64,000 nt of DNA from Candidatus Thorarchaeota archaeon (GTDB taxonomy: Archaea; Asgardarchaeota; Thorarchaeia; Thorarchaeales; Thorarchaeaceae): the NCBI GenBank assembly GCA_963726195.1, contig CAVSBO010000005.1, forward strand, positions 64,001 through 128,000, given 5' to 3'. The notes below the pieces were generated by a model. It saw nothing but the letters and a program-made list of their open reading frames with translations, was not told the DNA's origin and did no database searches. Below, in pieces: positions 29,161 through 44,126 of this stretch. The position numbers and the translations under genes were made by a program. Every line of letters starts with the position of its first letter. The first letter of the stretch is position 1.

Positions 29161-29350
29161 GAGATGGTTCAGTCGATAGGTATTTGTAGGTGCCTCGATC
29201 GCGGTACTCATTGACTTGGAGCAGCTCCTGTTAGAGAATGGAGGCGGTTCTGATGACATTGAAGAGCGAGCAAGTGTCCAAACTCGCCAATGTTTTCGGA
29301 GACCGGCTCGTTACTGCCAAGCATGAGATGATTATCCATTCTCAGGATGT
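29161..29350 (+). repeat. Diverged direct repeat copy 2 (5' end of the intact FAD oxidoreductase gene)
   Basis: Matches 27389-27578. Confidence 0.95.
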
Positions 29351-31192
29351 AGGTAGTCTGCCAAAGCAAGTCGGCTGGCTCATGAACACCACGCCGGACG
29401 CGATCGCTCAGCCTCAATCCCCCGAGGACATTCAGTTTCTCTATGAGTTCGCTCGGTCTCAGAAGGTCCCGCTTGTTCCTAGAGGTGCAGGGACCTCGGG
29501 ATACGGAGGTGCGATACCCCGCAAGGGCGGCATCGTTGTCGACATGCGCCGAATGGATAGAGTTGTGAACGTGGACAAGGAGAACCTGACGGTCACCGTA
29601 GAGCCGGGCATATCGTGGGTCAACTTGCAGTTTGAGCTGAATCGTCAGGGCTTGGATTTGCGATGCTATCCGTCCTCGGGTATATCGGCCACCGTGGGCG
29701 GCTGGGTCGCTCAAGGCGGCGACGGTATTGGCTCTCTGAAATATGGTAAGATTAACAACAACGTCACTGAGCTTGAGGTTGTTCTGCCTGACGGGCGGAT
29801 TGTTCGAACTAAGGATACAGATCTCTTCTGCGACACAGAGGGGATACTCGGAATCATCAGCAAGGTCACTTTGAAAGTCAAAGAGCTTACTCCAATTCAT
29901 TCAGTAGTCGCTAGCTTTCCTGAGAACTACCTGATGACTTTCGCAATTGAGAGAATCATATCCGACGGCCCATTGCCTTTCACGATGCGATTCGAGGAGA
30001 GCAAGTATACTGATTTGAAGAAGAAGGTGTGGGAATCCGAGAATCCTTTCCCGTTCCCTGTACATCACTGTGTCTTACTTGTTGCCTACGAAGGAGCCGA
30101 AGACGAGATTCAGGAAGGTCTCGAAGTCGTGAGGCGAGTAGCCGAAGAAATGAAGGGCACAGTCTACGATGACTGGGTCGCAGAGCACGAATGGGAAGAC
30201 CGCTTCTACCCGATGAAGATCAAGAAGATGGGCCCAACCCTTGTTGTCGGGCAGGCTTTTGCCCCAATCGAGAGCCTCGAAGGCATACTAGATGATTTTC
30301 AGTTCGAGCAGGCATCTGCAAAGGCCGGTATTGATGGTTACGTGACCTCAAAATCAGGGGTCACGATCATGGGATATTTCCTTGAGGATGAACGTCGTCA
30401 CTTCTTCATGCTATCTTGGTCCCAGAGCTTCGTGATATTCAAGATCGCTCAACGTCATGGCGGGCATCCCCACTCGACAGGGATCTGGTTCGCCAACTAT
30501 GCGCCAGTGTACTTTGGTACCCGCCGCTTGGCAAGAATTCGAGCGGCCAAGCTGGAGTCGACCCTCACGAGATATCTAACCCGGGCAAGGTGTTTGCGTA
30601 CTGGCTTCCTCTCATACTAAGGGTTGGCAAGTACTTCATGTGGCTCGGTTTCGACCTTTTCAGAAACGGGTTCGGCAGGATTGCACCCATTGTTCTGAGA
30701 TGGCTGCAGAATCTGCCGCCTATCAAGTGGCTCCTTAGATGGGGTCGGGCATACAGTCCTTGGCCGGTACAGTACGGACTTGGCTGCTGCATGGTTGAAG
30801 GTGCAGCTGCGGTCGCGTCTCGCTGGGATCTCGAGCGATTCGGGATGCTGCCTCTGTTTGGTCCTAGGCAGTGCGATGTGCTCTGGGTTTCCGGTTCGCT
30901 GACTAAGAAGATGGTACCACGTCTTCGCCGCATATACGAACAAATGCCTGATCCGAAGTTCGTCATATCATTTGGTCAATGTGCTGCAAGTGGCGGAATG
31001 TTCTGGGATGGATACTCATTGGTGTCGCCGCCTGACAAGGTGGTTCCGGTAGATGTCTACATACCAGGTTGTCCCCCCAAGCCAGCGGACTTCGTTCGGG
31101 CTCACCTGATTCTCGAAAACAAGATTCGTGCAGGAACGACCTATTGGCAGCGGAGATACGAGAGTCAGGACGCTATGGGTTTCGTAAAGTGA
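29238..31192 (+). CDS. nuoB: GlcD/Dld-type FAD-binding oxidoreductase fused to NuoB (frameshift near 30550)
   Basis: PRGAGTSGYGGAIP, YPSS..SATVGGW and TEGILGII in the first frame. The terminal DPHEISNPGK motif is in the second frame, which continues without a stop into GLGCCMVE, PRQCD, QMPDPKFVISFGQCAASGG, VDVYIPGCPP. Confidence 0.85.
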
Positions 31193-31202
31193 GGTTGACA
31201 CA

Positions 31203-31670
31203 ATGGCGACCGTTAGGGAAGACAGCGACTTCTATTGTTTGCTTTGGCTCGGAATTGCCTTGTTGAGTGGGTACTACTTCAACATTGGATACTTGGGGCT
31301 CACAGTACCCCTGTATCTCAGCACGATGCAGCCATACCTGCTCCAGCTGGTAGGTTGCCCGCTGATCCTAGTCATGGTCTCTGTTTCTTACCTGAGGCCA
31401 TCCCGGGGTAGGTACAAACCCCTAGTATTCGCTCTGGCGATTGTCGTGTGCGTGTACTTCTACATCGTTGTCAATTCATTGCCCCCGGTCGCAGGAATCA
31501 CTTCCGACGCACTGTTTCTGTTATCATGGGGAATTGGCAGCGCTCTTCTGGTGGCATCAGGTTTTTCGATAATGCCCGGTCGCGCAGAAACAACTAGCCC
31601 CGGTATTCTGGATGTTGGGTCTCTCAAGTACGGCATTCAGACAGAAGAGGAACACAACGAAACAGCCTAG
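31203..31670 (+). CDS. 4-TM hypothetical membrane protein
   Basis: Follows nuoB by 10 nt with GAGGT upstream; hydrophobic. Confidence 0.7.
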   Translation: MATVREDSDFYCLLWLGIALLSGYYFNIGYLGLTVPLYLSTMQPYLLQLVGCPLILVMVSVSYLRPSRGRYKPLVFALAIVVCVYFYIVVNSLPPVAGITSDALFLLSWGIGSALLVASGFSIMPGRAETTSPGILDVGSLKYGIQTEEEHNETA

Positions 31671-32183: not shown

Positions 32184-32534
32184 ATGGCGGCCTCGTGGTT
32201 GAACATGGGCACGTATGTTGAGGACATATACTTCCCGCTCGGAAACTCGGAAGCAATACGCCGTGTCAATAAGTGGCACGAAGGTGAGGGAAAAGACTTC
32301 AAAGTACTCAACAAGGGCGAGAACCATATTGAGATCAGACACAAAACACTGCATATCACAATCACTCTCATACCTGATCACGTACGAATCGAAGCGTGGG
32401 TGGGTGGGATAACGAAATACTCCATCGCACCGGATGTGATAGTCGGCGCCCTTGCTCGGCGCCAAGGCTGGAAAGAATATCAGACTCTGAAACAGGTGCT
32501 GGCCTCAGGTATAGAACCAGGATCTCTTGGTTGA
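32184..32534 (+). CDS. Hypothetical protein
   Basis: 116-aa ORF with globular composition in an intergenic gap. Confidence 0.5.
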   Translation: MAASWLNMGTYVEDIYFPLGNSEAIRRVNKWHEGEGKDFKVLNKGENHIEIRHKTLHITITLIPDHVRIEAWVGGITKYSIAPDVIVGALARRQGWKEYQTLKQVLASGIEPGSLG

Positions 32535-32723: not shown

Positions 32724-33167
32724 ATGAGGCTCTTCATTGACTTCAACTACGTCTTCGTTTGGGCCCTTCTTGCGATAGCCCTAGTCGCCATCATGCTCGC
32801 GGCATCGTGGATACTTCGCCCCCACGTTCTACAGAACTCAGACAAGACTTCCACATACGAATGCGGCGAAGAGCCGATAGGTCCCGCAAGAATCTCCTAT
32901 CCCTATAGTTACTTTCTGTACACGATTCTCTTTGTTATTGTAGATGTCATGGGCGCGTTCCTGTGGCTGCTCTCTGTGTCTCAGTTCAGAACTTCAGTAG
33001 CTGCTGCTTGGCAGATGCTCTTCTTTGTGCTGCTGATTTCAGCTGGAATTGGTTTTGCACTGCGGATGTTCCCGCAAACGATTCTCAGCGGGAAAGAAAC
33101 CCTCAAGCTCTACAGAGAGGGAAAGGCAAGACGTGAGTCTCAGAAGACGGAGGCGGCCCAGGAATGA
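32724..33167 (+). CDS. nuoA: Complex I-like subunit A
   Basis: KTSTYECGEEP, LFVIVDV; 3 TM. Confidence 0.93.
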   Translation: MRLFIDFNYVFVWALLAIALVAIMLAASWILRPHVLQNSDKTSTYECGEEPIGPARISYPYSYFLYTILFVIVDVMGAFLWLLSVSQFRTSVAAAWQMLFFVLLISAGIGFALRMFPQTILSGKETLKLYREGKARRESQKTEAAQE

Positions 33168-33820
33168 TGATGCAGGGTGTTGAGGTCTTGCTTGAGCAGG
33201 CAGAGTTCGTCGCGATAGCTTTCATCGTTCTTCTTCTTGCCTATCTCGCGCTTGAACACAAGGAAATCACCTATGCTGTATTCTTCTTTGGATTCATGGC
33301 AGCAGCGGTCTCAGGTTTCTTTCTCCTGCTGGATGCTCCTTTCTTGGTAGGATTACAGATAGCGGTTTACACGGGAGGCATAAGTGCACTGATCATATTC
33401 GGTGTTCTTCTCCTTCCTCGGGCTCAGGACTCCTCACTTGAAATCTTTCAAACTCCGAGAAGGAGACGGTTGGGACTCCTTCTTTCAGGCACGGTCATGT
33501 TGCTCTCGGCGGTTCTTGCATTCCTCTATCCATGGTACGAGCTACCACCGGTCAGCCCTCCGGAACTTCCTCAGAGCCTCCAGGGTTTGGCCGCTTGGCT
33601 CTGGAGCAGTCATGGGATTTACGTTGAGATGATTGCCTTGATCATGCTGACGGCCCTTGTCGGGTCAGTTGCTATTCTGAAGATGATGAAGGCAGAAGAA
33701 CTGCATCCCTTGATTGCCGAATCTCATGCAGAGCCCGCGGGGAAGAAAGATGCCGCCGGTTCTTCTTCTGTGTCTCAAACTGAGACCGGAGAAGAAGAGA
33801 AGGAGGTTGGCCCCAAGTGA
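33164..33820 (+). CDS. nuoJ: Complex I-like subunit J
   Basis: LDAPFLVGLQIAVYTGGI; 5 TM. Confidence 0.9.
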   Translation: MMMQGVEVLLEQAEFVAIAFIVLLLAYLALEHKEITYAVFFFGFMAAAVSGFFLLLDAPFLVGLQIAVYTGGISALIIFGVLLLPRAQDSSLEIFQTPRRRRLGLLLSGTVMLLSAVLAFLYPWYELPPVSPPELPQSLQGLAAWLWSSHGIYVEMIALIMLTALVGSVAILKMMKAEELHPLIAESHAEPAGKKDAAGSSSVSQTETGEEEKEVGPK

Positions 33821-34137
33821 TTCCCCTGAGCTGGTTCCTAGTCGTGGCATTCATGCTCATCGGCCTTGGGGCCTATGGGATGGTTACCAAGAGAAACTTG
33901 ATTCGAATAATCATAGGCGCTGAGATAATGGCCAATGGAGTGAACATCGCTCTGGTCGCGTTCTCAGTTTATACCAACGTATTCACATTCACTGGCCAAG
34001 CTCTTGTCATCATCGTAATATCAGTGACAGCGGCTCATACTGCGCTAGCCATGGCGCTCATGCTGATGTACAACGCTCGATACTCAACGGTGGACCTCGG
34101 AGAGCCTGTTGTTTCGGAGGCACGTAAGCATGAGTGA
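33817..34137 (+). CDS. nuoK: Complex I-like subunit K
   Basis: KRNLIRIIIGAEIMANG, GQAL, TAAH. Confidence 0.92.
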   Translation: MIPLSWFLVVAFMLIGLGAYGMVTKRNLIRIIIGAEIMANGVNIALVAFSVYTNVFTFTGQALVIIVISVTAAHTALAMALMLMYNARYSTVDLGEPVVSEARKHE

Positions 34138-34648
34138 GTCAGCTGTCTCTCCAGCAGCAGTTGCTCAGGCGGTGAGAAGCAGATGTCCCGATGTCACACA
34201 GGAGAGCATGCAGGGCAACCGTCTAGAGCTGGCAGTTCCACCTTCGAGAATCCGAGATGTCGTGAGCCTGCTTAACGAATTGATTTCTGACGCACTTCCC
34301 GAGTCCGTCTTTGGTATCGATCTTCAGAATGACCGATACGAACTGATCTACGTCTTCTGGTCCCACATCAATCGAATCCTGTGCCAGCTTCGTGTGAGTC
34401 TGGAAGGCGCCGCACCCGAAGTCGACTCTGTTTGTGACATATTCCCGGGGTTGGAGTGGCACGAACGCGAGACACATGAGATGTTCGGCATAGGTTTCAA
34501 GGGCCATCCTGACCTGAGATTGCTTTTGCTGCCGGAGGAACTGAGCGGCAAGTACCCGCTTCGAAAGAGCTTCAAGACTGACAGAAGCCGATTGAGCGAA
34601 ACTGGATTGCCCGAAGCCAGACCCGGTTCGAAGGAGGCTGAAGCATAG
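34130..34648 (+). CDS. nuoC: Complex I-like subunit C
   Basis: WHERETHEMFGIGFKGHPDLR...YPLRK. Confidence 0.93.
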   Translation: MSESAVSPAAVAQAVRSRCPDVTQESMQGNRLELAVPPSRIRDVVSLLNELISDALPESVFGIDLQNDRYELIYVFWSHINRILCQLRVSLEGAAPEVDSVCDIFPGLEWHERETHEMFGIGFKGHPDLRLLLLPEELSGKYPLRKSFKTDRSRLSETGLPEARPGSKEAEA

Positions 34649-35785
34649 TGAGCCCTGAAATCGTTGATGAAGCAGCGCAGATCTGGTTTGGACCCCAGCA
34701 CGTTTCTGCTCACGGATGGGCCACGAAGCTCACTATCGTGGGCGACTACATAGTCGAATGCGATCCGAATGCGGGTTACTTCCATCGTTCTGCGGAGAAA
34801 TGCCTCGAGTTCAGGAACTTCCAGCAGGGCGCAATGATCATGGAACGGCTCTGTATGCTTGAGGCTTTTCTTGCAGAGTATCCTTACGTCAAGGCAGTTG
34901 AACAAATCGCCCAGCTCGAAGTGCCAGAGCGAGCTAAGGTGATGAGAACAATAATGATGGAGGCGAGCAGGATTCACAGCCTCCAATTCTGGTGGGGTCA
35001 ATTCGGCGCCGAGCTCGGTCTCTTTGCAATGACGCTCTGGCCTTGGGTCGATCGTGAGTATTTTCTCAATGCATTTGAAGAACTGACTGGTTCTCGACAT
35101 GCAGTCTCTTACAACACACCTGGCGGCGTCAAGTACGATTTCACCGAGAAGTCCGTCAAGACGCTGGAACAGGCTCTCGACAGACTTGAGGATCGGCTGC
35201 CGAAGTTCCATGACATGATTCTGAGGAGCCCCACTTTCAAGTTACGAACCAAGAAGGTTGGACTATTTGACGCAGCACAGGGTCTCAAGTGGGGGCTGAG
35301 CGGGCCGAATATCAAGGCCTGTGGCATCCCGATGGATTTGCGAAAAGACGACCCCGACCCCAATCTCGCATACGGGATGTGCGACTGGGAAGTACCAGTG
35401 ACGACCAATGAGGATCATCCTGGTCAATGCGACGCGTACGATAGGATGCATCAGCGGTTCAAGGAAATCGAGAACCTCCATTGGCATTATCAGACAACTC
35501 CTGCCGCAGGTGCCTGAAGGTCCTATCGTGGACCCCAAAGCCCGCGCGAAGGCAAACAGGCTGCCCGAGGGAGAGGCATACGGTCGTGTCGAGGGCACAA
35601 GGGGAGTGACAACACTCTTTCTCAAGACTACTGACAAGGCTCAGACTCCTTACAGGGCAAAGATACGCGGCCCATGTTTCGCCTCTTACTACTCGTTGAA
35701 GCATTTGGTTCCTGGATCGACGTTCGCTGACTTCGTCGTGATATTCGGCAGCCTCGACCCATACCCAGGGTGGTGGGATCGCTGA
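34648..35785 (+). CDS. nuoD: Complex I-like subunit D (frameshift near 35475)
   Basis: GPQHVSAHG, GYFHRSAEK, EASRIHS, GLSGP..ACG...DLRKD / VEGTRG, PYRAKIRGP, SLDPYPGWWDR. Confidence 0.9.
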
Positions 35786-36927
35786 TGGGGGTCGGCACGA
35801 TTCTTCAGATAGACATCGTGGGCTGGCTAGGCGGACTGCCCTCTTGGATCTACGGTGTAATCAGCTGGCTGTTCAACCTTGTCTGGGCCCTCTTCAACTG
35901 GATATGGAACATTGTTGTATGGTTCTGGGCACTGGCTATTGACCAGATATGGTGGCTGTTCAAGGCCATAGTGTTTCCGGGGTTAGTCTTCATACTGTTC
36001 TCCATCATCTTCTCCGTGTGGTTCACGAGAAAGGTATGGGGCCGCGTGCAAGCAAGACGGGGTCCGTTTCACCTCGGTAAGTATGGGGGCCTCCAGGTAT
36101 TCGCAGATGCGATAAAGCTGATTGGAAAAGAAATCGTGATACCGGACAAGGCTAAGCGATGGATGTACCGCATACTTCCATCTCTGCTACTTGTCGCAGT
36201 TCTCATTCCATTTGCGTTCATACCGTGGAGCAACGAGTGGTATATCGCGGACCTTTCAGTGAGTCTAATACTGACCTTTGCATTTCTTACAGTTGTTCCA
36301 GTTGTATCACTGCTCTCGGGCTGGATTAGCGGATCGAAGTATACACTCATTGGTGGCTTCAGGGCGGCTAACAATCAATTCGCAGCCGAGATACCCTTGA
36401 TCATATCGTCTGTCGGACCTGCAATGCTTGCCGGTTCGCTGAGCATCATGGGGATTTCGCAAGCACAGTCAGGTCTTTGGTTCTTCATTCTGCTTCCCGT
36501 GAATTGCGTGACGTTCTTGGTGAGTGCTACTGTGATAACTGCGCTCGTGCCATTCGATGCGCCAGTTGCAGACTCAGAGATTCTTTTCGGTTGGCGCACT
36601 GAGTTCAGCGGCATTTACTTCACTATGACCTATTTCGCAGAGTTCGCAAAGCAGTTGCTGTTCTCCGGTCTGATAGTAGCTCTGTTTTTCGGAGGCTCCT
36701 ACGGCTTCGCATTCATACCTCCTGTCCTGAACTTCATCTTCAAGTTCTTGGTCGTGCTGTTCCTCATGATCTTGGTAACATCATCATTCTACAGGATGCG
36801 ACAGGACCAAGTGACGCATTTCTGCTGGAAGTATCTTCTCCCGCTGTCTTTGCTCAATGTTGTCATTGCGATGTTTGCTATTGTCTATGTCCCGGGCTTA
36901 GCACAGCTGCTGGGAATAGGAGGTTGA
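35785..36927 (+). CDS. nuoH: Complex I-like subunit H
   Basis: QARRGP, GGLQVFADAIKLIGKE, SKYTLIGGFRA, PFDAP..DSE...G...EFSG. Confidence 0.93.
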   Translation: MGVGTILQIDIVGWLGGLPSWIYGVISWLFNLVWALFNWIWNIVVWFWALAIDQIWWLFKAIVFPGLVFILFSIIFSVWFTRKVWGRVQARRGPFHLGKYGGLQVFADAIKLIGKEIVIPDKAKRWMYRILPSLLLVAVLIPFAFIPWSNEWYIADLSVSLILTFAFLTVVPVVSLLSGWISGSKYTLIGGFRAANNQFAAEIPLIISSVGPAMLAGSLSIMGISQAQSGLWFFILLPVNCVTFLVSATVITALVPFDAPVADSEILFGWRTEFSGIYFTMTYFAEFAKQLLFSGLIVALFFGGSYGFAFIPPVLNFIFKFLVVLFLMILVTSSFYRMRQDQVTHFCWKYLLPLSLLNVVIAMFAIVYVPGLAQLLGIGG

Positions 36928-36934
36928 TGGAAGA

Positions 36935-37366
36935 ATGGGATTCTTTGGCACACTGGGCGAGATATTCAGGGTTCTTCGCCATACATTTCGTCAGACAATG
37001 TCCCGACCTTTCACCTATTTCTATCCCTTTGAAGACCGATACTATCCAGACAGAACGAGGGGCAGACACATTCACATAAGAAAGAACTGCACTGCATGTG
37101 CACAGTGTGTGAAAGCTTGTCCTACTATTGCGATAAGGATTGACAAACAGGATCACATGTATGAGAAGGATGCCGCTCTGTACTTCGACTATACGCGCTG
37201 CATTTTCTGCGGCCTTTGTGTTCAGGCCTGTAAGTTCAACGCACTATTCCATACCAAAATCGTCGATCTCAGTGAAGAAACCAGAGAGGACCTGCAATAC
37301 GGCCCTGACAGGATGGGCACACTCGAAAGGAAACCCCTCGAGTGGCGTGGGAGGAAATTCAGGTAA
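36935..37366 (+). CDS. nuoI: Complex I-like subunit I (2x 4Fe-4S)
   Basis: RGRH, CTACAQCVKACP, RCIFCGLCVQAC. Confidence 0.93.
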   Translation: MGFFGTLGEIFRVLRHTFRQTMSRPFTYFYPFEDRYYPDRTRGRHIHIRKNCTACAQCVKACPTIAIRIDKQDHMYEKDAALYFDYTRCIFCGLCVQACKFNALFHTKIVDLSEETREDLQYGPDRMGTLERKPLEWRGRKFR

Positions 37367-38880
37367 TGCAGACGCTACAACTCCCGTTCATGGCGATTTC
37401 GCTGGCCGTGTTGTTCTTTGGTGCACTGGGCATATACTTACTGAAGGGCAGGCTGAATGCCGGGGCCGGCAAAGCAGCAGCGGGTATTTCGTTTGCTTCG
37501 CTCTTGCTCATGATTCCACCATTCTACAGGGTTGTCGCAGAAGGTGGGCCCGCCATGGAGTCCACCGTATGGTCTCAAGTCTTCGGCAGGGTAGGTCTCT
37601 ACCTTGATGGCATCGCATTCCCAATAACATTCGCAGTCGTGGTTCTTGGATTTCTTTCAGTAGTCTATGCAATCGGGTACACCCAAGAGATATCCAACAG
37701 GGCATCGTTCTTTGCAAACCAGCTGTTCTTCATCATGGGAATGCAATGGGTAACCCTGGCTACGAATCTGATTGAGTTCTTCATAGCATGGGAAATCATG
37801 CTTGTTCCCACCTACTTCCTGATTCTATTCTGGGGATTACCCGAGACCAGAAAGCGCACTGCGTTGAAGTTCTGGTTGTACACACAGTCGGGCGCACTAT
37901 GCATCTTCGTCGGATTCGGTCTGCTGTACTACTTTGTTGGCTCGTTTGAGCTCTCGGTCATCCAATCGCTTCTTCCCACATTCGTGGGTTCAGTCGACGC
38001 GCTGAAACTCATCTTTGTCTTGCTGGCGGCAGGTTTCCTCGTGAAGATGGCGGTGTTTCCTATTCATTGGTGGTTGCCTCCTGTTCACGCCGAAGCCCCA
38101 ACTCCAATCTCTGTGCTCTTGTCGGGCGCAATGATTGAGACCGGTGCTTATGCACTAGTCAGGTTCGGAACGATCACACTGGGGATTGCCGCTTCATCTC
38201 TTTCTGTGTGGATTGCTGCGATTGGAGTAGTAACTATGTTCTATGGGGGACTCATGGCGCTCGCCCAATCAGACATCAAGAGGTTGCTTGCATACTCCTC
38301 TGTGTCCCAGATGGGCTATGTCCTCTTTGCGCTCGGCACTTTCACGACTTACGGAGTGTCAGGAGGTTTGTTTCATCTCATTAATCACGCATTCTCCAAG
38401 GGTCTCCTATTCATGACAGCAGGAGCCGTCATTCACGAGACCAAAATCAGAGACATTGCTCAGCTGGGCGGATTGTCAAACAAGATGCCTGTGACTGCCT
38501 TTGCTGCTGCTGTTGGGGCGCTTAGTATCGCAGGGAGCCCTCCACTGTCCGGCTTTGCCAGCGAATGGATGATGTTTCTAGGTGGCTTTCAGGCTGCGCT
38601 GCCCGGTGCAGGCGGGCTGGCCCGGCCTGAGTTCTTTGTTCTGGCATTGCTCGGAGTATCAAGCACGATAATCAGTGCAGGATACATGCTGAGGTTCCTC
38701 TGGAAGGTTTTCTTGGGCCCGACACCAGAAAGTCTCGAGCACGTGAAGGAAGGACCTAGATCAATGACCACTCCGATGGTCGTGTTGTCCATTCTGATAG
38801 TCCTGTTTGGAATATTCCCGGGGCTCGCTCTGTCAGTGATATCCCCGGCAGTAAGTGCCATAGCCAACATAATCCCCTGA
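37366..38880 (+). CDS. Additional antiporter-like subunit (NuoM/MrpD type)
   Basis: FFIAWEIMLVP, HWWLPPVHAEAPTPISVLLSG, DIKRLLAYSSVSQMGY, NHAFSKG. Confidence 0.88.
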   Translation: MQTLQLPFMAISLAVLFFGALGIYLLKGRLNAGAGKAAAGISFASLLLMIPPFYRVVAEGGPAMESTVWSQVFGRVGLYLDGIAFPITFAVVVLGFLSVVYAIGYTQEISNRASFFANQLFFIMGMQWVTLATNLIEFFIAWEIMLVPTYFLILFWGLPETRKRTALKFWLYTQSGALCIFVGFGLLYYFVGSFELSVIQSLLPTFVGSVDALKLIFVLLAAGFLVKMAVFPIHWWLPPVHAEAPTPISVLLSGAMIETGAYALVRFGTITLGIAASSLSVWIAAIGVVTMFYGGLMALAQSDIKRLLAYSSVSQMGYVLFALGTFTTYGVSGGLFHLINHAFSKGLLFMTAGAVIHETKIRDIAQLGGLSNKMPVTAFAAAVGALSIAGSPPLSGFASEWMMFLGGFQAALPGAGGLARPEFFVLALLGVSSTIISAGYMLRFLWKVFLGPTPESLEHVKEGPRSMTTPMVVLSILIVLFGIFPGLALSVISPAVSAIANIIP

Positions 38881-38881
38881 G

Positions 38882-41107
38882 GTGAGCCAGATGCTGTTCG
38901 GACTACCCTACTATTTGATTCTCGTTATTCCGCTGGCAGGCTCGCTGGTCGTGCCTCTCGCTGGACGCTTCAATGAGAGGCTGAGAGACTGGACGCCGGC
39001 TATTCTCATGGGCGTTACAATGGTCTTGTGCTGGTCTCTTTTCCCGGACATAGGTAACCCGCAGGGCCCAACTAGTTGGCCTTGGATTGAAGCTCTGGGT
39101 CTTCGTTTCGAAGTTCTGCTTGATCCACTATCGGTCATCATGGCAGTTCTTTCAAGCACTTTGTGTTTCCTAATCTACGTCTACAGCACAGAGTATATGG
39201 CTCACGAAGGAGACCGTGACAGGTTCTTCTTCCTAATGCTTGCTTTCGGTGGGGGCATGCTGACCCTTGTTCTCAGCAACAATCTACTGATTGCATTCAT
39301 CGGGTGGGAGATAATGGGCTTCTGTTCCTACGGACTGATTGGGTTCTGGAACGACAGGAAGAACCCACCGGAGATTGACCCGACCGGCATTGAACCCAAG
39401 AATCGATTGCTCCACTTCAAGACAGAGGGAGAGTACAACACTCACTGTGGAACAAAGGCATTCATCGTAACGAGAGTCGGAGACGCATTCATGCTTGGGG
39501 GAATTCTGGTTCTATTCATGTTCACTGGCACCTTCTCATTTACAGACATGGCCGCAGATGCTCAGAGTTGGTGGCAGGTTTTGTCTTCGGTTGGGATGCT
39601 AGTCCCGGTATTCCTCCTCATATTCGCAGGCGCTATAGGAAAGTCCGGACAAGCTCCGCTCGATGTTTGGCTGCCGGAAGCGATGGCAGGACCAACTTCG
39701 GTCTCAGCACTGATTCACGCAGCAACCATGGTCAACGCGGGAGTGTACATAACAGCAAGGTTCCTTATCACCATGCTAAGTGCTGCGAACCATTACACGT
39801 ATTTTCCAATGGGGCCTCCTCCGTTCGCGTCGGCCACATCTTTCTTCACAATCGTGGCCATAATCGGAGCTGTTACTGCATTCATGACGGCGACCATGGG
39901 GATGGTCTCCAACGAGCTGAAGCAGATACTGGCATTCTCCACGCTGAGCCAGCTCGGATACATGATGTTGGCGATAGGCACAAGCGGACTGATACTCAAC
40001 TATCAAGAGGCATACATGAGCGGAGTCTTGCATATCGTAAGCCATGGTGCGTTCAAAGCTCTCCTCTTTTTGGCGGCTGGCGGTGTCATTCATGTTGTTC
40101 ACACGAAGTACCTCAGCAAAATGGGCGGTCTCAAGCAGTACATGCCCAAGACGTTCCTTCTGATGTGGATTGGTGTGCTAGCTCTTTCTGGTATCCCGCC
40201 CTTCTCAGGATTCTGGTCGAAAGACTCGATAATCGAATACACGTACGAACTGGCGCTTCATAGCCAAGTAGGTATGTTCCTCTTTGTTCTGTCTGTTCTT
40301 GCAGCGGCCTGCACAATCTTCTACAGCATAAGGCTCATGGGAATGGCTTTCTATGGGCCTTCACGTGGCGCAGCATCAGATGGGCAATCGGTCACCCAAT
40401 CTGAGCACGAAGCTCCCGAGCACTCAGAGCCCGAGGAACACAGTGGCCATGAAGAGCCGCATGACCCAGGTCCGGCAATGATGGTTCCGCTCTATATTCT
40501 GGCTGCTTTCACGATTGTGGCCTTTGCGATCTTCCCATTCATCCAAGGCGTACTGTTCAGTGAAAGTCCGTTAACACTGGACACATGGGCCATGAGCCTT
40601 GTAGGGATGGCTCTCGCGAAGTTTACAATGCCGGGGCTCGTCCCTCTTGTCTTCACGTTCGGAGCTTTGGCTTTGGGCGGCATCCCGGCCTACGTTCTTT
40701 ATATCAGGAGATCGGACAGGCCAAACACTGCTATACCCGAACACGGTGTGAGAAAGCGGCTCTACGGTTTTCTCAAGCACCGATGGTACATCAACGAATT
40801 CTACTACTGGATTGTCGGCGGCGTTCTTAGATTCACGAGTTCGTGGAAAGCAAAGGTGGATGACCGTATCATTGACGGCATCGACTTTGGTTCAGCTCGT
40901 GTAGCGACCTCAGCTTCTACCCGGGTACGATGGTTCGATGACCATGTGGTTGACGGGTTTGCTGAAGAGATATCAACAGCCAGCGTAGCCGTTTCCGAGT
41001 CGAGTGAAGCCATTGAAACCGGAAGAGTGAACGACTATGTGGCCGTCCTTATCTTCGGCGTTGGTCTCTTGGTTATTCTCGCTCTCATTTCCATGGGGGT
41101 AATCTAG
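38882..41107 (+). CDS. nuoL: Complex I-like subunit L
   Basis: GWEIMGFCSYGLIGFW, KSGQAPLDVWLPEAMAGPTSVSALIHAATMV, HGAFKALLF, GFWSKD. Confidence 0.95.
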   Translation: MSQMLFGLPYYLILVIPLAGSLVVPLAGRFNERLRDWTPAILMGVTMVLCWSLFPDIGNPQGPTSWPWIEALGLRFEVLLDPLSVIMAVLSSTLCFLIYVYSTEYMAHEGDRDRFFFLMLAFGGGMLTLVLSNNLLIAFIGWEIMGFCSYGLIGFWNDRKNPPEIDPTGIEPKNRLLHFKTEGEYNTHCGTKAFIVTRVGDAFMLGGILVLFMFTGTFSFTDMAADAQSWWQVLSSVGMLVPVFLLIFAGAIGKSGQAPLDVWLPEAMAGPTSVSALIHAATMVNAGVYITARFLITMLSAANHYTYFPMGPPPFASATSFFTIVAIIGAVTAFMTATMGMVSNELKQILAFSTLSQLGYMMLAIGTSGLILNYQEAYMSGVLHIVSHGAFKALLFLAAGGVIHVVHTKYLSKMGGLKQYMPKTFLLMWIGVLALSGIPPFSGFWSKDSIIEYTYELALHSQVGMFLFVLSVLAAACTIFYSIRLMGMAFYGPSRGAASDGQSVTQSEHEAPEHSEPEEHSGHEEPHDPGPAMMVPLYILAAFTIVAFAIFPFIQGVLFSESPLTLDTWAMSLVGMALAKFTMPGLVPLVFTFGALALGGIPAYVLYIRRSDRPNTAIPEHGVRKRLYGFLKHRWYINEFYYWIVGGVLRFTSSWKAKVDDRIIDGIDFGSARVATSASTRVRWFDDHVVDGFAEEISTASVAVSESSEAIETGRVNDYVAVLIFGVGLLVILALISMGVI

Positions 41108-41169
41108 AGTGCAGATTCTGCTAGACTCAGCAGCTTATCGACCTAATCCCCCTAGGAATACTTCCGTTC

Positions 41170-42627
41170 ATGCTTGTCCTTCCCCTAGTTGCCTCACTTG
41201 TTGCTTACGCAGCTCGTGGGAAGGCTGCAAGAATCATTACGCTCGCCGTGACGATCATTGAGCTTCTACTGTCGCTTCTTCTCGCGATGGCATTCGATCC
41301 TGCCATAGGCTCTGGTGATCCAAACGCCGGAATGAAGTATCTGTGGAATTTCGTGATGGGCCAGATTGTCACGGGCGGAGGATCGACTCAACTTCGAATA
41401 GCCGTGGGAGTTGACGGCATCTCTGTGGCCATGATTGCTCTATCGAACTTCGTTGTCATGATTGCCACAATTAGCTCGAATCATATTCACAAGTCAGAAG
41501 GATTGTACTACGCCCTGATGCTGCTTCTGCAGGTAGGGCTTCTCGGTGTCTTCATGTCGCTCGACCTCATTGGGTTCTTCATCTTCTGGGAGCTTGTCCT
41601 GATCCCAATGTTCTTCATCATTGGTCGATGGGGCGAGGAGGGATGCCAGCACGCTGCTGTCAAGTTCTTCATCTACACTCATCTTGGTTCTGCAGTGATG
41701 CTCGTCGGTTTCTTCGTCCTGTACTTCGCGGCGGTGCCTCACACATTTGACATGATAGCACTCCGGAGCATGGGCTTGCCTCCAACCATCCAGCTTGGAT
41801 TTGCACTTGCTGTATTCATGGGTGCAGGAGTGAAGCTTCCTGTCTGGCCACTACACAACTGGCTTCCGTGGGCTCACGTGAAGGCTCCAACGCCCGGATC
41901 TGTGATTCTTGCTGGAATACTCCTGAAGATGGGAGGCTACGGGTTCATTCGCCTTGGAGTCTGGATGGTTCCATCCGCCTTTGCAAGACTGAGTATTCCA
42001 CTCGCTGTGCTCGCGGTGTTCACCTGTATCTACGCGGCATTCACGGCCATGGCCCAGACCGATTTGAAGAGCATGGTGGCCTACACTTCGATAAACCACA
42101 TGTCTTGGGTTCTGCTGGGCGTCGCTATCGGGACAACCGCCGCACTGCAAGGTGCGGTCTACATGATGGTCTCCCACGGAGTAATCATATCTGTCATGTT
42201 CATTGTTGCAGGACAACTCAAGTACTCTGCAGGATCTAGGGAAATCCCTCAAGTCAAGGGATTGATGGCGCAAGCTCCTCGACTGTCATCCGTTTTCATC
42301 TTCGCGTCGTTTGCCGCATTTGGTCTGCCCGGTCTAAGCGGATTCATCGCTGAGGCGTTGATTCTATTTGGATCGATAAGGGTCTACGTGTGGACCGCGC
42401 TAATCACTCTGGGTGTTTTCCTGACTGTGGGTTATCTGCTTTGGACACTCAACAGAGTCGTATTCAGTGATCCCAGCTCAGAGAAACCAGTTACAGAGGC
42501 ACCTTGGTCTGACCTCATCGCGCCCTTGATTATTCTAGTTCCAGTTGTAATCCTAGGAATTTGGCCCGACCTCTTACTTGGATTAGTGTCGCCAGTCGTG
42601 TCATTCATTGTTGGGGGTGTGCCATAG
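41170..42627 (+). CDS. nuoM: Complex I-like subunit M
   Basis: FFIFWELVLIPMF, HNWLPWAHVKAPT, LLKMGGYG, AYTSINHM. Confidence 0.93.
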   Translation: MLVLPLVASLVAYAARGKAARIITLAVTIIELLLSLLLAMAFDPAIGSGDPNAGMKYLWNFVMGQIVTGGGSTQLRIAVGVDGISVAMIALSNFVVMIATISSNHIHKSEGLYYALMLLLQVGLLGVFMSLDLIGFFIFWELVLIPMFFIIGRWGEEGCQHAAVKFFIYTHLGSAVMLVGFFVLYFAAVPHTFDMIALRSMGLPPTIQLGFALAVFMGAGVKLPVWPLHNWLPWAHVKAPTPGSVILAGILLKMGGYGFIRLGVWMVPSAFARLSIPLAVLAVFTCIYAAFTAMAQTDLKSMVAYTSINHMSWVLLGVAIGTTAALQGAVYMMVSHGVIISVMFIVAGQLKYSAGSREIPQVKGLMAQAPRLSSVFIFASFAAFGLPGLSGFIAEALILFGSIRVYVWTALITLGVFLTVGYLLWTLNRVVFSDPSSEKPVTEAPWSDLIAPLIILVPVVILGIWPDLLLGLVSPVVSFIVGGVP

Positions 42628-44126
42628 TGTTTCAGCTTTTTACGCCCATCATCGATTTCATACGCGCCGTATTGGCTCCTCTCACACAGCAATTGCTTCT
42701 GTTCATTCCTGCCGATTGGATTGGATCGCTGCCCGCACTTACTCTCGTAGTGTTCGCGTTGCTCGCTCTAGCAGTGGGCATGCGATGGAACCCACTAGCG
42801 GTCAGCTTCGTAGGAGTCTTGGTGACCACAACTGAGATGGTTGTTTTCGCCCCGGTGCCCTCTTTCGGAGGTCTTTTCACCAGGGATGCATTCGCTGACT
42901 TCTTCATCTACATCATTCTGATTGTCGCTTTCCTTGTCCTGATGTCCTCTACGCTGCATGGTGGAGACCGTGGGCCGTACAACTTCCTGCTGCTCATGTC
43001 TTTCGCAGGAGCCATCTGGGTGGTCATGGCGACTGACCTCATTGCATTATTCATAGCATGGGAATTGATGTCCACTCCTACCTACGTTCTTGCAGCGCTT
43101 AGCCCGAATCACGGAGCCGTCGATGGAGCAACTAAATACTTCGTCATGGGCCTAATGGCAACTACACTCATGATATTCGGAATTGCTCTGGTGTACGGCG
43201 TCACGGGTGAGACCAGCTTGTCAGTGTTGTCGTCTACCGTAGCGGCAATTTGGAGTTCTGGTCCTGAACTTTCTCCCGCAGCGTACACCCTGATGCTTGC
43301 CATGATTCTGTTTGTGATTTCATTCGGATTCAAGGTCGGCATCTTCCCTGGCTGGATGTGGGTGCCGGATACCTACTCCACTGCTGACGGAAGCGTTACC
43401 TCGTACTTGGCGGGTGGAGCGAAGAAGGCCGGAGTCAGCGCACTGGTTAGGATACTGATGATTGCGTTCATTGTTGCGAGACTCAGCTGGACTCCTCTCA
43501 TAGTCGGAGTATCGATTCTGACGATGGTGATCGGAAACGTACTCGCTCTGGCACAGCGCAACATAATGCGAATGCTGGCGTATTCGAGTATTGCGATGAT
43601 GGGATACCTGCTGATAGGGCTCGCAGCAGGTACGGAACTCGGGCTGGCTGCGGCTTTCTTCCAAGCTTTCGTTCACGCCCTGATGAAGACAGGGGCTTTC
43701 ATCTTGATATGGACAATCTCAGTCCGTTTGGCCCGAGATGTAACATACGACGATCTGGCAGGATTGAGTCAGAGGGCTCCGCTAGCATCGGCGATGTTCG
43801 CAGTATTGATGCTTGCTCTTGCGGGGATGCCACTGACTGCCGGATTCTGGTCAAAACTAATCCTATTCCAGAGTGCGGTCGAAGTTGGGATGTGGTGGCT
43901 TGCGTTGATCGGGCTCCTGAACTCGGTGTTCTCTCTAGGCTACTACCTAAGGGTGCTCAAGTACTGTTATATGGTAGAGCCGAAGGACGGTGCACCATTG
44001 AAGCTGGCTAGGACCCCTGTCATAGCTGCTGTTCTATGCGTCGTAGGTGTTGTCGTGCTCTTCATCTACCCGGGAGCGGTGCTCGACTATGCAATCAGGG
44101 CTGCCGCCGGAATAGTTGTACCATAG
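42627..44126 (+). CDS. nuoN: Complex I-like subunit N
   Basis: AWELMS, KYFVMG, FKVG..P..MWVPDTY, RMLAYSSI, GMPLTAGFWSK, YYLR. Confidence 0.93.
   Translation: MFQLFTPIIDFIRAVLAPLTQQLLLFIPADWIGSLPALTLVVFALLALAVGMRWNPLAVSFVGVLVTTTEMVVFAPVPSFGGLFTRDAFADFFIYIILIVAFLVLMSSTLHGGDRGPYNFLLLMSFAGAIWVVMATDLIALFIAWELMSTPTYVLAALSPNHGAVDGATKYFVMGLMATTLMIFGIALVYGVTGETSLSVLSSTVAAIWSSGPELSPAAYTLMLAMILFVISFGFKVGIFPGWMWVPDTYSTADGSVTSYLAGGAKKAGVSALVRILMIAFIVARLSWTPLIVGVSILTMVIGNVLALAQRNIMRMLAYSSIAMMGYLLIGLAAGTELGLAAAFFQAFVHALMKTGAFILIWTISVRLARDVTYDDLAGLSQRAPLASAMFAVLMLALAGMPLTAGFWSKLILFQSAVEVGMWWLALIGLLNSVFSLGYYLRVLKYCYMVEPKDGAPLKLARTPVIAAVLCVVGVVVLFIYPGAVLDYAIRAAAGIVVP

Follow-up and report, generated by a model that had tools for sequence, protein, structure and literature searches.

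A candidate four-pump complex I-like enzyme with a lengthened NuoL lateral helix in Thorarchaeota

We analyzed a 64-kb stretch of DNA (hereafter, the window) from a Candidatus Thorarchaeota genome (assembly GCA_963726195.1, contig CAVSBO010000005.1, positions 64,001 to 128,000 of the forward strand; the assembly comprises 2.9 Mb and is 88.9% complete) by listing its open reading frames (ORFs) and matching them against Pfam. The window carries homologues of nuoA, B, C, D, H, I, J, K, L, M and N in a complex I-type operon on the plus strand, whose pump end has the gene order I-M'-L-M-N, where M' is a fourth antiporter-like (pump) subunit beside NuoL, NuoM and NuoN. This order had been claimed in an earlier note made from the DNA letters, and the ORFs and Pfam matches bear it out. 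The four antiporter-like genes are tightly packed: nuoI and M' overlap by 25 nt, M' and nuoL are 1 nt apart, and nuoM and nuoN overlap by 1 nt at the nuoM stop codon. No other PF00361 gene occurs in the 2.9 Mb genome. We consider it quite likely that the operon encodes a complex I-like enzyme with four pumps, in which M' is part of the membrane arm and a lengthened lateral helix of NuoL forms a strap that spans M', M and N.

The lengthening can be read directly in nuoL, where GAT GAC CGT ATC ATT GAC GGC (DDRIIDG, residues 660-666) at 40859 and GAT GAC CAT GTG GTT GAC GGG (DDHVVDG, residues 686-692) at 40937 lie exactly 78 nt, or 26 codons, apart, just as the earlier note had it. When the helix is compared with itself in 13 orthologues, similarity rises to one sharp maximum, at a shift of 26 residues (mean BLOSUM62 score +0.28), a value reached by none of 500 column shuffles, whose maxima averaged -0.33 +/- 0.16; the 26-residue repeat exceeds chance. 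The duplication of the module is old, because no more than 5 of 26 residues and 30 of 78 bases are identical between its copies, and the latter figure rules out a recent event. In a MAFFT alignment the lateral helix of this NuoL is exactly 26 residues longer than that of Escherichia coli NuoL and than those of 14 L subunits of standard length from Asgard clusters with three pumps, and three more L subunits, from two-pump clusters, are shorter by a further module. Measured as the distance between the WYxN/D and QTG anchor motifs, our measure of helix length, the helix has 79 residues in the window, 50 in E. coli and 50-54 in standard L subunits. The one added module lies at the insertion site of the bacterial 2M type (PMC9040806), 2M denoting complex I with an extra pump subunit; published 2M complexes have an insertion of equal length at this position (PMC9040806, PMC6606698). 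The consensus of bacterial three-module NuoL carries FDxxV[IV]DG twice, 26 residues apart. The best sequence matches to this NuoL are named Candidatus Thorarchaeota. Solved NuoL, ND5 and NdhF chains (e.g., 6hum_F, 8e9g_L and 3rko_L; E-values 1e-81 to 1e-59) share the fold and family of the window protein and resemble it in the layout of transmembrane helix (TM) 15, lateral helix and TM16; those aligned here have one DxxV[IV]DG module against two in the window, and each of them aligns to either copy. An AlphaFold2 model of NuoL (mean predicted local distance difference test score, pLDDT, 85.9) has helices at residues 634-694 and 702-711, followed by TM16 at 715-738, and its confidence is low at 690-714, as is to be expected because the strap was modelled without its partners. 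Two lineage-specific loops were also seen in this protein. One is an insert of about 30 residues (window 39350-39445, residues ~157-188) that interrupts the Pfam match in the majority of Thorarchaeota orthologues, and the other is an acidic, His-rich segment (SEHEAPEHSEPEEHSGHEEPHD; window 40360-40470, residues ~492-530) located before TM15 and modelled with low confidence.

Table 1 Features of the complex I-type operon in the window
Feature	Position in window	Strand	Basis or remark
GlcD-like flavin adenine dinucleotide (FAD) domain fused to NuoB	29238..31192	+	Pfam; gene maps of relatives
Small ORF X1	31203-31670		between GlcD-NuoB and nuoA; no Pfam match
Second small ORF	32184-32534		between GlcD-NuoB and nuoA; no Pfam match
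nuoA, J, K, C, D, H, I	32724..37366	+	Pfam
nuoD	34648-35785	+	broken by one added base at 35473
nuoI	36935-37366	+	ORF and Pfam
M', fourth antiporter-like subunit, 512 aa	37342..38880	+	Pfam PF00361, E 1e-71
nuoL, 741 aa, three-module lateral helix	38882..41107	+	PF00662 and PF00361; closest PDB match NdhF/NuoL
nuoL module copy 1 (DDRIIDG...), residues 660-685	40859..40936	+	raw sequence, alignment
nuoL module copy 2 (DDHVVDG...), residues 686-711	40937..41014	+	leads into conserved ETG motif preceding last TM helix
NuoL C-terminal anchor helix TM16, residues 715-738	41024..41095	+	AlphaFold2 secondary structure
nuoM, true NuoM type	41109..42627	+	GTG start 41109; open frame here from ATG 41170
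nuoN, true NuoN type	42627..44126	+	likely start GTG 42627 (from closest relative, L001); ORF listing from 42561

Among the 31 related genomes examined, the four-pump cluster was found in 15 of the 19 belonging to the same family, and also in G019 from a sister family and G029 from another Asgard family. The claim of the earlier note that the extra gene and the extra module go together holds in all 15 Asgard clusters examined. Several genomes possess in addition a second, three-pump K-L-M-N cluster whose L has the standard two-module helix, i.e., some Asgard genomes hold a three-pump/two-module type beside a four-pump/three-module type. The NuoL of G029 (L014, C25) has three copies of 26-27 residues past the base module, with 107 residues between the anchors, and an additional C-terminal hydrophobic segment.

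In trees of the M- and N-type subunits, the M and N of the cluster join bacterial NuoM and NuoN, respectively, both with 100% support, the archaeal and bacterial sequences being sister groups in either case. The phylogeny of M' versus M and MrpD, a check suggested in the earlier note, places M' within a NuoM/MrpD superclade (99-100% support), separate from the true NuoM clade, and an approximately unbiased (AU) test rejects M' and true NuoM as one clade (p = 0.00065, for a group defined after the tree was seen). Placement and test together rule out M' as a copy of NuoM. The M' clade (94-97% support) also includes M-like subunits from two sources, hydrogenase-type clusters of Asgard archaea and K-N-L-M' clusters from archaeal metagenomes, the latter probably from TACK-group archaea, judging by their relation to Thermoprotei-type NuoL. 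On this phylogeny, the predicted fourth pump is recruited from a different module family than NuoM. An ESM Atlas look-up of M' gave generic antiporter clusters only.

We postulate that the product of the operon would be a complex I-like ion pump that has four antiporter-like modules instead of three and is devoid of the module for reduced nicotinamide adenine dinucleotide (NADH). In the predicted arm, NuoN would stand beside the A/J/K/H core, followed by NuoM and M' in the middle and by NuoL at the far end, and the lateral helix of NuoL would run back along the arm as a strap, with its last TM helix as the anchor. If each neighbouring module occupies about 26 helical residues (~39 Å), then three modules instead of two, presumably the outcome of the ancient tandem duplication, would let the helix span M', M and N, and the one added pump module would be expected to move 5 instead of 4 ions per two electrons. 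Four points are our inference: the incorporation of M' into the arm, where it stands in it, how many ions are moved per electron pair, and in which direction the enzyme works.

Several observations speak against such an enzyme, some of them concerning the strap, others the integrity of the operon and its chemistry. The strap was surveyed in 150 representative NuoL (50% identity level), 80 bacterial genome loci, 54 archaeal metagenome loci and 120 Nitrososphaerota proteins, and the co-occurrence of pump-gene and module numbers was judged across about 200 loci. Helix lengths fall into classes of about 27, 53-55, 79-83 and 105-111 residues, i.e., one to four modules of 26. It is conceivable that the long helix has nothing to do with M': the archaeal NuoL lineage would simply have inherited its three modules, and M' would be an antiporter-like protein that serves as an alternative or acts on its own, outside the space between L and the anchor. 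This would agree with the 13 bacterial L-M-N loci that have three modules and three pump genes, with an archaeal locus (L144, A-B-C-D-H-I-J-K-M'-L-N) that has three pump genes and the same helix length as the window, and with G029, in whose cluster a four-module helix is paired with no more than four pump genes (a fifth was not found in that genome, whose one other PF00361 gene belongs to a small hydrogenase-like cluster of its own, and nothing follows nuoN). It would also agree with the three modules (79-80 residues) present in 120 of the 120 Nitrososphaerota/Thaumarchaeota NuoL homologues retrieved (P0343-P0462, some named Nitrososphaerales), many of which are probably paired with three pump genes, and with the at least 14 changes of module number across well-supported branches of a NuoL tree built without the helix. 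The earlier note had staked its reading on a helix longer than that of archaeal NuoL from three-antiporter clusters; that part stands only to a degree, as L144, the Nitrososphaerota proteins and the bacterial L-M-N loci are equally long, but the fourth gene itself is present in the window. However, an unrelated helix fits poorly with the distribution at the other end of the range: all 26 loci with at least four adjacent pump genes (15 Asgard, two Nitrospira and nine from archaeal metagenomes) have at least three modules, none having a two-module helix, and among about 100 loci with a two-module L none has more than three pump genes. Furthermore, all Asgard clusters have M' between nuoI and nuoL and translationally coupled to them, and tandem M'-type copies track the number of modules in related archaeal metagenome loci (three genes with two modules, four with three and five with four). 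We consider it rather unlikely that helix and M' are unrelated. Nevertheless, a long helix is necessary for an extra pump but, given the three-module/three-pump loci, insufficient evidence of one. The survey also turned up an archaeal locus (L121, CEUD01123196.1) with five adjacent antiporter-like genes (N-like, L and three tandem M'-type) and a four-module helix, and its sisters L128, L132, L134 and L156 have two M'-type genes and three modules. The bacteria with three-module L-M-N loci (within L039-L118, e.g., L041, L043, L048 and L077) belong to Acidobacteriota, NC10, Binatia and Verrucomicrobiota; in four loci from Acidobacteriota (anchors 79-80 or 89 residues apart) and in Candidatus Udaeobacter (L043, Verrucomicrobiota) a second complex I operon lies convergent to the first.

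The integrity of the operon is put in question by three single-base differences from the closest relative (L001, 81-91% identical): a one-base deletion at 30557 splits the GlcD-NuoB gene, one added base at 35473 splits nuoD, and one added base near 41124 puts the first 20 codons of nuoM, from its GTG start at 41109, out of frame. Taken at face value, they would mean that the operon is decaying in this genome and yields no working enzyme. Yet all three are one-base changes in length, two of them in two-base runs, as assembly errors would give; the genes are otherwise free of stop codons, M' and L align without gaps over 3766 nt to L001, and twelve other genera keep every gene of the operon intact. 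The indels are probably errors of assembly or sequencing, and decay seems to us quite improbable. Indels of this kind could mislead gene calls across this assembly. Even less probable, indeed hardly credible, is a horizontal transfer of the bacterial 2M complex I of the Nitrospira/Chloroflexi type, with M' as a NuoM duplicate. The insertion is equal in length and position to that of bacterial three-module NuoL and likewise has the FDxxV[IV]DG motif twice, as a transfer would lead one to expect, but the second M of Nitrospira nests inside bacterial NuoM, and M' lies outside all true NuoM, as the AU test above confirms. In addition, the archaeal M and N form clades of their own, the order is M'-L-M-N and not the bacterial L-M-M-N, and the few named members of the clade that holds this NuoL are without exception archaeal (Asgard, Thermoproteota and Bathyarchaeota). 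This clade is separate from that of E. coli NuoL, which alone is the ground for calling its side of the tree, built without the 80 named bacterial loci, bacterial.

The chemistry of the complex raises further points on the unfavourable side. NuoF (PF01512), the mark of an NADH module, had no match in the 88.9%-complete genome, and neither was the MqnA/D family of futalosine-pathway menaquinone synthesis found in it. The NuoD-like subunit has neither the cysteine motifs of hydrogenases (RxCGxC and DPCxxC, both missing from the NuoD-like proteins of type A) nor the quinone-site Tyr; it retains the loop His (GPQHVSAHG) and reads ERLCMLE, without the Tyr, in all Thorarchaeota orthologues, at the place of RxCGxC in hydrogenases and of RxDY in NuoD. 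We take the quinone-site residues to be the Tyr of R(M/L)DY and the His of the GPQHPxxHG loop, following Nqo4 numbering. The C-terminus of this subunit reads SLDPYPGWWDR. The pattern as a whole is kept in 11 Thorarchaeota orthologues and corresponds to neither a hydrogenase nor a standard quinone site. Finally, M' retains the TM5 Glu, TM7 Lys and TM12 Glu in the alignment, which counts in favour of the enzyme, but has a Glu in place of the central TM8 Lys (a Gly occupies this position in the M' of G029 and of metagenome loci), and a subunit without this Lys may not pump as NuoM does. As for direction, the earlier note had favoured reverse electron transfer to ferredoxin, an idea borrowed from aerobic nitrite oxidisers, for which reverse electron flow has been proposed (PMC6606698). 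Nothing here favours it, and we regard it as the less likely direction, with a modest chance at best in this anaerobe. Forward pumping driven by ferredoxin appears likelier, on somewhat better than even terms, since the low potential of ferredoxin is sufficient to drive a fifth ion and high-potential donor systems were not seen.

Complexes of the 2M type have been described in Nitrospira, Manganitrophus, Chloroflexi and marine Thaumarchaeota (PMC6606698, PMC7117926, PMC9040806, PMC7300363), and PMC7300363 assigns the complex of the heterotrophic marine Thaumarchaeota to 'clade 2'. The closest counterpart to the four-pump cluster that we encountered is a metagenome locus (L161, A-H-J-K-M'-L-M-N, with a helix of 80 residues) whose NuoL shares 82% identity with a protein named Conexivisphaerales, further matches being named Nitrososphaerota. 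Its first, third and fourth pump subunits group with Asgard M', M and N, respectively, nearest to G029 (97-100% support), i.e., it matches the Asgard cluster one subunit after another. Clades 1-3 of 2M-type complex I reportedly go back to Chadwick et al. 2018, and orthology with this Nitrososphaerota locus, from the phylum to which clade 2 is assigned, is indirect evidence for where the window complex may belong among them. Like the Thaumarchaeota/Nitrososphaerota 2M complex I, the window complex is archaeal, lacks NuoEFG and has four antiporter-like subunits and a lengthened NuoL; it differs in phylum, in the fusion of its NuoB to a GlcD-like flavoprotein, in its order A-J-K-C-D-H-I-M'-L-M-N and in the TM8 Glu of M', where the Nitrososphaerota-type copies have Gly. 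With the 2M complexes of Nitrospira and Chloroflexi it has in common an extra pump subunit and a 26-residue insertion, at the same NuoL site and with the same repeated motif, whereas their extra subunit is a duplicate within bacterial NuoM (L-M-M-N) and that of the window is an M'-type module before L. Because the extra subunit differs in this way, we consider the archaeal four-pump design to be convergent with the Nitrospira/Chloroflexi type, and common to several archaeal phyla rather than peculiar to Thorarchaeota. Thus, the independent archaeal origin suggested in the earlier note is upheld insofar as M' is unrelated to the second NuoM of Nitrospira, but an origin confined to this lineage is not, given the matching layout of the Conexivisphaerales-type locus and the 2M complex already published for Nitrososphaerota.

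Asgard archaea are also known to have group 4 [NiFe]-hydrogenase complexes whose membrane arms resemble that of complex I (PMC11291895; bioRxiv 10.1101/2024.07.04.601786), and the papers on Asgard complex I-like enzymes make no mention of a four-pump arm. In the Asgard hydrogenase K-L-M-N clusters (L024-L026), the M-like subunit after L is the nearest relative of M' and likewise has a Glu in TM8. These clusters have a full lateral helix with two modules and three pump genes, and in the two where a large subunit was found it keeps cysteine motifs that the NuoD-like subunit of the window has lost: both in L027 (RICGIC, DPCFSC) and the first in L025, an incomplete ORF. Both motifs also occur in L031. 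Taken together, these relations allow a wider reading that we put forward tentatively, as possible and yet on balance doubtful. M' would be a distinct module without the TM8 Lys, shared with the Asgard hydrogenase-type complexes and the TACK K-N-L-M' clusters, and the Nuo-type enzymes of Asgard archaea and Nitrososphaerota may descend from one with the M'-L-M-N arm; in that case, relatives with three pumps and a three-module strap (M'-L-N, e.g., L144) would retain this strap as a relic of a lost NuoM, and strap length would be a modular ruler with steps of 26 residues, re-set many times to between one and four modules.

At the other end of the operon, the GlcD-NuoB fusion is encoded by one ORF of 646-669 aa in nine relatives and is the sole NuoB of the complex. 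A homologue of X1, the first of the two small ORFs that follow it, is recognisable in 10 of the 11 related Thorarchaeota clusters spanning this region, and X1 may be an accessory subunit of the complex.

The design as such is already known from bacteria and other archaea, and the locus in the window is a clear new example of it, not a new kind of machine. What it adds is modest, namely the identity of the fourth pump as a distinct M'-type module and the quantised length of the strap. The combination of an extra pump with a longer strap is hereby extended to Asgard archaea, Thorarchaeota among them, which of all prokaryotes are the nearest kin of eukaryotes, and it appears that archaea built it from a different spare part than Nitrospira did. 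The three- and four-pump pairs within single genomes, together with the strict steps of 26 residues, offer material to test whether the lateral helix couples the pump modules or merely clamps them. Five ions per electron pair, if true, would alter the estimates of energy yield for these anaerobes.

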